This document shows, one piece after another, positions 19,145-19,343 of a stretch of DNA of 64,000 nt; within the stretch, counting starts at the first letter, position 1, and every line of letters starts with the position of its first letter. A model generated the notes under the pieces. It was given only the letters and a program-made list of their open reading frames with translations. It had not been told where the DNA came from and did no database searches. The stretch is from Escherichia coli (GTDB taxonomy: Bacteria > Pseudomonadota > Gammaproteobacteria > Enterobacterales > Enterobacteriaceae). The stretch lies in NCBI RefSeq assembly GCF_003790525.1, contig NZ_CP033635.1; one strand, written 5' to 3'. The position numbers and the translations under genes are program-made.

Positions 19145-19149
19145 GTAGC

Positions 19150-19335
19150 CGCATCAGGTATGTAACGCCTGATGCGACGCTAACGCGTCTTATCAGGCCT
19201 ACACGCTGCGATTTTGTAGGCCGGATAAGCAAAGCGCATCCGGCATTCACCGCCTGATGCGACGCTGACGCGTCTTATCAGGCCTACACGCTGCGATTTT
19301 GTAGGCCGGATAAGCAAAGCGCATCCGGCACGAAG
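19150..19335. repeat. REP/BIME cluster, two near-identical tandem ~80-bp units
   Basis: gcctgatgcgacgct(a/g)acgcgtcttatcaggcctacacgctgcgattttgtaggccggataagcaaagcgcatccggca occurs twice between araA and araD. Confidence 0.85.
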
Positions 19336-19343
19336 GAGTCAAC

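Follow-up and report, generated by a model that had tools for sequence, protein, structure and literature searches.

A tandem BIME-2 array of variable unit number in the araA-araD spacer of Escherichia coli

Introduction

Elements of the BIME-2 class have been described as combinations of z2 and y palindromes which are joined by a short linker and repeated in multiple tandem copies, the number of which is variable between strains (PMC3333891). For this variation between strains the same source refers to Bachellier et al. 1997, and it also cites Espeli and Boccard 1997 for the cleavage of BIME-2 by gyrase in vivo. The araD-araA region of K-12 is explicitly termed a BIME there, and the MG1655 araD-A BIME (B315/B316) was found to provide substrates of TnpA_REP which are cleaved and recombined in vitro (PMC3333891). 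The BoxC repeats of E. coli, which are 56 bp long and present in about 32 copies, are a further known family (PMC2267715).

The effect of a tandem array of paired REPs inside an operon has been studied in REP325, where the array was reported to raise the mRNA of the upstream gene yjdM and to lower that of the downstream gene yjdN about 8-10 fold (bioRxiv 10.64898/2026.03.23.713779). This effect is partly dependent on Rho and is accompanied by a ladder of hairpin-ended transcripts (bioRxiv 10.64898/2026.03.23.713779). Genome-wide, tandem gene pairs with REP were observed to show a raised ratio of upstream to downstream expression (bioRxiv 10.64898/2026.03.23.713779).

Here we describe the repeat array located between araA and araD in one E. 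coli sequence and compare it with the same spacer in other E. coli genomes and in other Enterobacteriaceae. The araBAD operon is a workhorse of expression technology, and the K-12 laboratory reference, which has three units, carries one of five alleles of this spacer. REP/BIME-2 arrays, their copy-number polymorphism between strains and the araD-araA BIME of K-12 are already known from the literature. Only mildly novel are the near-universal hairpin, with turnover of the element that forms it, in the araA-araD spacer of Enterobacteriaceae and the allelic series in E. coli.

Results

Organisation of the locus and the array

The window, by which we mean the whole stretch of 64,000 nucleotides that was analysed, contains the ara genes and polB as listed in Table 1, all five of which reach the cut-off of their NCBIfam equivalog models, and the queried region matches E. 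coli SMS-3-5 at 100% (NC_010498.1, about 71.4-72.2 kb, minus strand). The araA-araD spacer of the araBAD operon is 199 bp long (19145-19343) and holds the repeat array, which lies wholly inside the interval between the araA stop codon (TAA, 19142-19144) and the araD start. The araB-araA spacer in the window comprises 10 nt only. In the K-12 RefSeq record two CDS are annotated in the araA-araD region and REP features are absent.

Table 1. Genes of the ara region and features of the araA-araD spacer, in positions of the window.
Feature	Position	Strand	Description
araC	14747-15643	minus	ORF list; NCBIfam equivalog cut-off passed
araB	15931-17631		ORF list; NCBIfam equivalog cut-off passed
araA (L-arabinose isomerase)	17642-19144	+	ORF list; NCBIfam NF002795, 897.8 bits
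Whole tandem repeat	19150-19330	+	period 85 bp, about 2.1 copies
Degenerate left edge, GTAGCCGCATCAGGTATGTAAC	19145-19166	+	remnant: 3' half of Y REP and tail linker
Z2-type REP no. 1	19167-19202	-	iREP on the + strand, CTAC end, 4-nt loop TAAC
Head-to-head short linker (S), unit 1, ACGCTGCGATTTT	19203-19215	+	13 nt
Y-type REP no. 1	19216-19245	+	GTAG at the 5' end on the + strand
Rfam naRNA4 (RF02564) match	19219-19284	+	Y no. 1, tail linker and Z2 no. 2; 59.6 bits
Tail-to-tail linker TTCACC, unit 1 to unit 2	19246-19251	+	6 nt
Z2-type REP no. 2	19252-19287	-	loop TGAC
Head-to-head short linker (S), unit 2	19288-19300	+	same as unit 1 linker
Y-type REP no. 2	19301-19330	+	ends 2 nt before the araD Shine-Dalgarno
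araD Shine-Dalgarno AAGGAG	19333-19338	+	5 nt upstream of ATG
araD (L-ribulose-5-phosphate 4-epimerase)	19344-20039	+	ORF list; TIGR00760, 447.5 bits; ATG at 19344
polB	20114-22465		ORF list; NCBIfam equivalog cut-off passed

Tandem Repeats Finder reported a single array (19166-19330) with a period of 85, 1.9 copies, 98% matches, no indels and a score of 323, and a repeat search extended the homology leftward to 19150, with 19150-19234 and 19235-19319 being 93% identical. An earlier note on this DNA had described tandem, nearly identical units of paired REPs between araA and araD, and this description was borne out by the repeat searches and by the profiles of the flanking genes. Its unit length of about 80 bp has to be corrected to a period of 85 bp because the 4 nt left out between the 81-nt units belong to the unit. 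Direct comparison of the 81-nt units (19166-19246 and 19251-19331) gave two mismatches, one of them internal (19182, A/G) and the other located where the repeat ends (19246 T and 19331 C), which agrees with the difference of about one base that had been noticed.

The array begins with the degenerate remnant of a Y, after which come two units of 85 bp, and in each unit a Z2 REP is joined to an inverted Y REP by a linker of 13 nt. The first palindrome of each unit reads GCCTGATGCGACGCT(A/G)ACGCGTCTTATCAGGCCTAC and the second reads GTAGGCCGGATAAGCAAAGCGCATCCGGCA. The sole internal difference between the two units, the A at position 19182, is located in the loop of Z2 REP no. 1. The Z2 hairpin has an energy of -21.4 kcal/mol as RNA and of -11.4 kcal/mol as DNA (z = -4.9), and the Y hairpin has an energy of -14.3 kcal/mol as RNA with z = -2.8 as DNA. 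In addition, an alternative hairpin about 5 nt past the araA stop, formed by CGCATCAGG of the left edge and CCTGATGCG in the first arm of Z2, is predicted at -17.2 kcal/mol as RNA and is present in the predicted MFE fold. At the position of the remnant, E. albertii and Escherichia sp. MOD1-EC7003 have GCATCCGGCATTCAG, which is identical to a Y tail with its linker, and the array therefore starts on the left with a truncated Y.

Assignment to the BIME-2 class

All the features that define the REP/BIME-2 family at the level of sequence were found in the array, and by these features it is a member of the family. The four palindromes are 30-36 nt long, with GTAG or CTAC at every head, and as RNA their energies are -14 to -21 kcal/mol. 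In the window, GTAGGCCGGATAAG, the head motif of REPs, was observed nine times where 0.34 would be expected (at most two mismatches), an excess which is not due to chance. The matches are distributed over four separate sites, the further ones being 26228-26313, 46653-46692 and 51134. As expected of a dispersed repeat, the median number of places matched in an E. coli genome by a 599-nt query with the array was 11. The palindromes follow one another in the order Z2 (iREP), Y (REP), Z2 and Y and are alternately inverted. We take them to be of the Y and Z2 types from a comparison with the consensus sequences, together with the match to an Rfam model of Y/Z2 pairs. The linkers are short (13 nt head-to-head and 6 nt tail-to-tail) and the units are tandem and variable in copy number between strains, with 2.1 copies here and 1-4 across E. 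coli.

No match to the IHF consensus WATCAANNNNTTR was found in 19145-19343, as expected of BIME-2. Assignment to BIME-1, which combines Y and Z1 in a single copy with a long L linker and an IHF site, was rejected on the 36-nt Z2-like partner, the repeated unit, the 13-nt linker and the missing IHF match. Intrinsic terminators, defined as a GC-rich hairpin with a T-run, were absent from both strands of 19145-19343, where no T-run follows the REP stems, and the promoter and terminator scan gave no promoter-like sites inside the array. The array is therefore taken to be transcribed through from PBAD. Considered as a whole, the locus is with high confidence best explained as a BIME-2 cluster with polymorphism of whole units, for which we infer both the mechanism of gain and loss and the function.

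Variation of copy number in E. coli

The length of the spacer was taken as the span of the joined match to queries of the coding flanks only, in 5,426 complete E. coli genomes. The array was left out of the query since overlapping pieces of array matches stay unjoined. The sample in Table 2 consists of 59 rows for each of two flank queries, systematically spread over 5,398 genomes, with a few genomes present in both sets.

Table 2. Lengths of the araA-araD spacer among the sampled E. coli rows.
Spacer	Content	Rows, SMS-3-5 flanks	Rows, K-12 flanks	Both sets
284 bp	3 units, as K-12	22	20	42/118, 36%
168 bp	1 unit and BoxC-like element	17	21	38/118, 32%
199 bp	2 units	13	11	24/118, 20%
114 bp	1 unit	6	7	13/118, 11%
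369 bp	4 units	1	0	1/118

The earlier note had set against its own proposal the case of one arrangement in all E. coli, and what we observed instead were spacers of 114, 168, 199, 284 and 369 bp. Compared across strains, the series from 114 to 369 bp corresponds to one to four units of 85 bp. In the representative alleles, units of exactly 85 bp are located between a constant left remnant and a constant right junction. After its last Y REP and ahead of the araD Shine-Dalgarno, the 168-bp allele carries a 57-bp BoxC-like element, which is presumably BoxC, judged by the consensus of that family and by its dispersed copy number. This dispersed repeat was found at a median of 12 places per genome, and 1,566 of the 5,426 genomes have the complete element with the junctions seen here, a count that agrees with the sampled share of the 168-bp allele.

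Genomes with closely related flanks were found to be largely uniform in spacer length. Where the 600-nt flanks are 100% identical to those of SMS-3-5, the 199-bp spacer was observed in 21 of 22 genomes. The flanks of 702/18 are likewise 100% identical to SMS-3-5, yet its spacer is 114 bp long with one unit, and this single unit carries the 'A' specific to unit 1 of SMS-3-5, fused to the right junction. Such a structure is as would be expected from the deletion of one unit, or from the reverse duplication, via recombination between repeats. Among the matches listed, all 19 genomes with a flank identity of 99.0% have a 199-bp spacer, so that two units are the allele of a lineage rather than a private trait of SMS-3-5. 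A very recent duplication private to the strain, or an assembly artefact, which the single internal base between the two units might suggest, is refuted by 20 other independent complete genomes with the same flanks and the same spacer length, and it is also made extremely improbable by the two-unit alleles of O157:H7 and of further backgrounds, in which the units are 2-8 differences apart.

With K-12 flanks, three units were found in all 60 of the best-matching genomes. In ES5, which has K-12 flanks, exactly the middle unit is missing, and in XL1-Blue, a recA1 derivative of K-12 also with K-12 flanks, the middle unit is present twice, which gives four units. The constancy seen in 60/60 and 21/22 genomes, together with the cases of ES5, XL1-Blue and 702/18, indicates that the copy number is stable in the short term and changes by whole units.

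We also noticed that the gain or loss of a single unit can be traced on identical haplotypes. The copy-number alleles are, in addition, consistent with neutral drift.

Sequence evolution of the units

In a matrix of 29 units, variation was found mostly in the 4-nt loop of Z2 and in the S linker, and the Y REP was observed to be almost invariant. No other segment varies as much between strains as the S linker, although the units within an array have it in common. As an example, linker variants are common to units 1-2 of ATCC 25922 and to the four units of SCPM-O-B-8794, and a Y-loop variant occurs in both units of O157. This sharing of strain- or species-specific variants within an array points to concerted evolution. 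The two units are 1 nt apart in SMS-3-5 and likewise in its 99%-flank relative CFSAN061771, as against 2-8 nt in the two-unit arrays of ES5, O157, SMN013SH2 and Ecol_743.

These distances agree with a duplication or conversion of comparatively recent date in the SMS-3-5 lineage. The recent duplication or gene conversion suggested in the earlier note also fits the single-unit differences on 100% identical flanks (702/18; ES5 and XL1-Blue) and the strain-specific linker variants that are common to the units of one array. Units would be gained and lost when the 85-bp direct repeats recombine unequally or slip during replication, and/or when RayT, the REP-associated tyrosine transposase, cleaves and rejoins strands. 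Substrates of RayT (TnpA_REP) are REPs with GTAG as 5' guide and CT cleavage sites in the iREP or linker, in genomes that have a cognate rayT. The array is a candidate substrate: GTAG heads are present in it, rayT is intact in SMS-3-5 (NC_010498.1, 254577-255074) and the K-12 ortholog of the array is cleaved and recombined in vitro. The action of RayT and repeat recombination or slippage, RecA-dependent or -independent, would leave arrays that sequence alone cannot separate.

The spacer across Enterobacteriaceae

One genome per species with AraD was taken, which gave 80 loci, 79 of them with both gene ends. In 77 of the 79 species the spacer measures 47 nt or more and is predicted to form a GC-rich fold of -18 kcal/mol or better (raw energy), and in the remaining two it is 0-11 nt long. 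The element that forms the hairpin in these 77 species is a REP pair, a BoxC-like pair or another hairpin with a T-run behind it. The number of units is one in E. albertii, three in Escherichia sp. MOD1-EC7003 and four, which are more diverged, in SCPM-O-B-8794, a genome labelled E. coli. Just one REP pair, about 86-100 bp long, was observed in Citrobacter, Salmonella arizonae and diarizonae, Pseudenterobacter, Kosakonia and others.

The REP by the araD start is of the Y type in Citrobacter, S. arizonae, Pseudenterobacter, Kosakonia and others, and in several genera such as Citrobacter and S. arizonae it is near in sequence to the Y of Escherichia. BoxC-like pairs are located in the spacer of Klebsiella, Kluyvera, Pseudocitrobacter and some Enterobacter. 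In Leclercia, Lelliottia, Silvania, Phytobacter and Franconibacter the spacer is 47-57 nt long, with a GC hairpin and then a T-run. Compensatory double changes were found in 0 of 13 pairs in the hairpin and T-run spacers of 11 other genera, where two of the sequences are poorly aligned.

Discussion

By analogy with REP325 of yjdM-yjdN and with further REPs between cistrons, the most likely role of the array would be that of a mild stabiliser of araBA mRNA and a partial attenuator before araD, with the number of units as a dial. In the araBAD mRNA the array would fold into a stack of very stable hairpins. The RNA of 19135-19350 is predicted to fold at -97.1 kcal/mol (z = -6.5 against shuffles) and each added unit is predicted to contribute roughly -42 to -50 kcal/mol. 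The hairpins would block 3'-to-5' exonucleases, by which the araBA message would be stabilised, and in addition act as partial attenuators of the transcription of araD. The number of units would in this way set a modest dial on the AraA:AraD ratio. The effect on the expression of araD relative to araBA that the earlier note had suggested is plausible by this analogy. A search of the literature on effects of the araA-araD REPs on mRNA gave nothing specific to this locus.

The size of such an effect can be considered from the side of the metabolism. Cells deficient in araD accumulate toxic L-ribulose-5-phosphate on arabinose. Any attenuation of araD is therefore probably mild, since a strong attenuation would risk this toxicity, and a strong effect is also disfavoured by the substantial frequencies at which alleles of 1-4 units are found side by side. 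The ribosome-binding site of araD is predicted to be unpaired with a probability of 0.48-0.55 in all the alleles, whether with 1-4 units or with BoxC.

It is possible, if rather less probable, that the array is a neutral or selfish repeat in a permissive non-coding slot, where its number drifts by slippage or unequal recombination with no meaningful effect on ara expression. Five length alleles coexist with no obvious constraint, and the site accepts REP pairs, the BoxC-like element and, in other genera, other hairpins. The equal predicted accessibility of the ribosome-binding site across alleles and the lack of covariation support for the non-REP hairpins point in the same direction. However, a strong hairpin is kept in the spacer of 77 of the 79 species, which has to be seen against an araB-araA spacer of 10 nt. 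Furthermore, the Y REP by the araD start is nearly invariant in Escherichia, with a Y-type REP at that place in several genera, and the REP325 experiments and the genome-wide bias argue that REPs inside operons usually affect expression.

A role at the level of DNA seems unlikely to us. The array would here be a preferred site of binding and cleavage by DNA gyrase which relieves the positive supercoils from strong transcription at PBAD, and more units would give more sites. BIME-2 elements are reported targets of gyrase cleavage in vivo, and the composition of the array is that of BIME-2, with the IHF site of BIME-1 absent. Such a role, however, leaves unexplained the unrelated hairpins, or hairpins with a T-run, that are located at the same place in other genera.

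The distribution of hairpins across genera could also be read as a conserved slot which needs a stable RNA hairpin and is filled by whichever element is available, with the allelic series of E. coli as a selected, phylogroup-specific dial of AraBA against AraD. We consider this doubtful; if true, it would be relevant to the avoidance of toxic L-ribulose-5-phosphate. The array as a source of a small nucleoid-associated RNA like naRNA4, condensing the chromosome with HU, was rejected as very improbable because the match to RF02564 is generic, being marginal at 59.6 bits against a gathering score of 59.5 for a model that in effect detects Y/Z2 REP pairs and also matches the minus strand at the array and the BIME at 26231-26310 (77.3 bits), and because the founding claim is contradicted by the finding that REP325/naRNA4 gives no measurable nucleoid compaction and acts locally in its operon (bioRxiv 10.64898/2026.03.23.713779).

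Mild stabilisation of the araBA message with partial attenuation before araD remains the reading that we prefer. The natural series of alleles, which differ in the number of units and in the presence or absence of BoxC, provides a ready test of the tuning of upstream/downstream ratios by REPs inside operons.

Comparison with known systems

BIME-1 elements resemble the ara array in that they are inverted pairs of REP palindromes located outside genes. They differ in having Z1, a single copy and an IHF site in the L linker, whereas the ara array has Z2, a 13-nt linker, a tandem arrangement and no IHF consensus. The BoxC-like element is located in the araA-araD spacer of about 29-32% of the E. 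coli genomes and forms a GC-rich hairpin as the REPs do, but its family, with the form CCCTC...GGGGAGAGGG...GGGGTGAGGGG, is unrelated to them in sequence. This element is absent from the SMS-3-5 site and from the whole window.

REP325, located between yjdM and yjdN and the source of naRNA4, is like the araA-araD array a set of tandem paired REPs inside an operon, between co-oriented genes. The Rfam model derived from REP325 matches the araA-araD array, and REP325 serves as the experimental model of a dual partial terminator and stabiliser of upstream mRNA. The two arrays differ in size and in their linkers, as REP325 in K-12 has six repeats with 12 hairpins whereas the ara array of SMS-3-5 has two units with four hairpins and the remnant.

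The closest system is the araD-araA BIME of K-12 MG1655, which is orthologous and located at the same site, with Z2-S-Y units whose 80-nt cores show 0-3 differences each. K-12 and SMS-3-5 also agree in the left remnant and in the junction to the araD Shine-Dalgarno. The difference between them is in the number of units, with three in the 284-bp spacer of K-12 and two in the 199-bp spacer of SMS-3-5. In addition, the A at position 19182 in the loop of Z2 no. 1 of SMS-3-5 was observed among the sequenced alleles otherwise only in 702/18, which has the same flank haplotype.

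Alleles of the spacer within E. coli

A 57-bp BoxC-like element (TTGTTTTCCCCCTCGCCCCTTTGGGGAGAGGGCCGGGGTGAGGGGAAACGACCTCTC) was observed to replace further BIME units in approximately 29-32% of E. coli genomes. It is inserted precisely where the last Y REP gives way to the Shine-Dalgarno sequence of araD. The element is a dispersed repeat, occurring at 12 places in the median genome, and it was not found in the 64-kb window.

A four-unit spacer of 369 bp, in which the middle K-12 unit is doubled, was observed in the XL1-Blue assembly (NZ_CP081007.1, 649435-650403). XL1-Blue carries recA1, and three units are present in 60 other genomes with K-12 flanks, among them MG1655, C600, J53 and an assembly of 4.6 Mb that bears the label DH5alpha. 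Therefore, the fourth unit represents either a laboratory expansion that is independent of RecA or an error of assembly. We noticed that a 4.83-Mb genome which is also labelled 'DH5alpha' (NZ_CM135829.1) has the 168-bp BoxC allele with flanks that are not those of K-12, and this genome is therefore probably mislabelled. For SYNB1934, an engineered derivative of Nissle (NZ_CP080246.1), only the araD flank was matched. Of 5,426 genomes, 28 gave no match to the flank queries at all.

Within the REPs themselves, the loop of the Z2 hairpin, 4 nt long, was found to be the most variable position (window position 19182 and its equivalents in loci L001-L010 and L092-L095, extracted from the compared genomes), with TAAC, TGAC, TGGC and CGAC as the variants in these arrays. 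Unlike this loop, the REP stems are nearly fixed. The variability may arise because hairpin loops are hotspots of mutation, or the loop may simply be unconstrained.

Other repeats and RNA features

In a second BIME in the window, a Y REP whose head is degenerate (ATAGGCCGGAGAAG...) is joined by a linker to a Z2 REP, and this BIME scores 77.3 bits against the Rfam naRNA4 family. A terminator scan rated the hairpin between araD and polB as terminator-like, and did so for the minus strand alone; this hairpin may mark the araBAD terminator region or act as a bidirectional terminator. Rfam matches elsewhere in the window were taken at the gathering threshold.

Coordinates of repeats and RNA features (window positions unless a locus is named)
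Feature	Position	Strand	Remark
Leucine operon leader	686-835	+	Rfam match
SgrS sRNA	5594-5820	-	Rfam match
TPP riboswitch	8586-8685	+	Rfam match
Hairpin, 10-bp stem	20070-20096		AAACCAGGCT...AGCCTGGTTT; between araD and polB
Second BIME	26229-26313		Between rluA (25547-26206, +) and convergent ORF (26324-27184, -)
Additional REP head(s)	46653-46692
Additional REP head	51134-51147
ES003 sRNA	56292-56344	-	Rfam match
BoxC-like element	~401-468 of extracted loci L003 / L007		Strains 98192 and O111:H8 7-27 20A

Spacer hairpins across Enterobacteriaceae

A hairpin-forming element is present in the araA-araD spacer of 77 of the 79 Enterobacteriaceae species compared (loci L011-L090), where its kind differs. 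Some spacers contain REP pairs, in which the REP adjoining araD is often of the Y type, and BoxC-like pairs occur in Klebsiella, Kluyvera, Pseudocitrobacter and some Enterobacter. In Leclercia, Lelliottia, Silvania, Phytobacter and Franconibacter, a GC hairpin is followed by a T-run, an arrangement which looks like an intrinsic attenuator.
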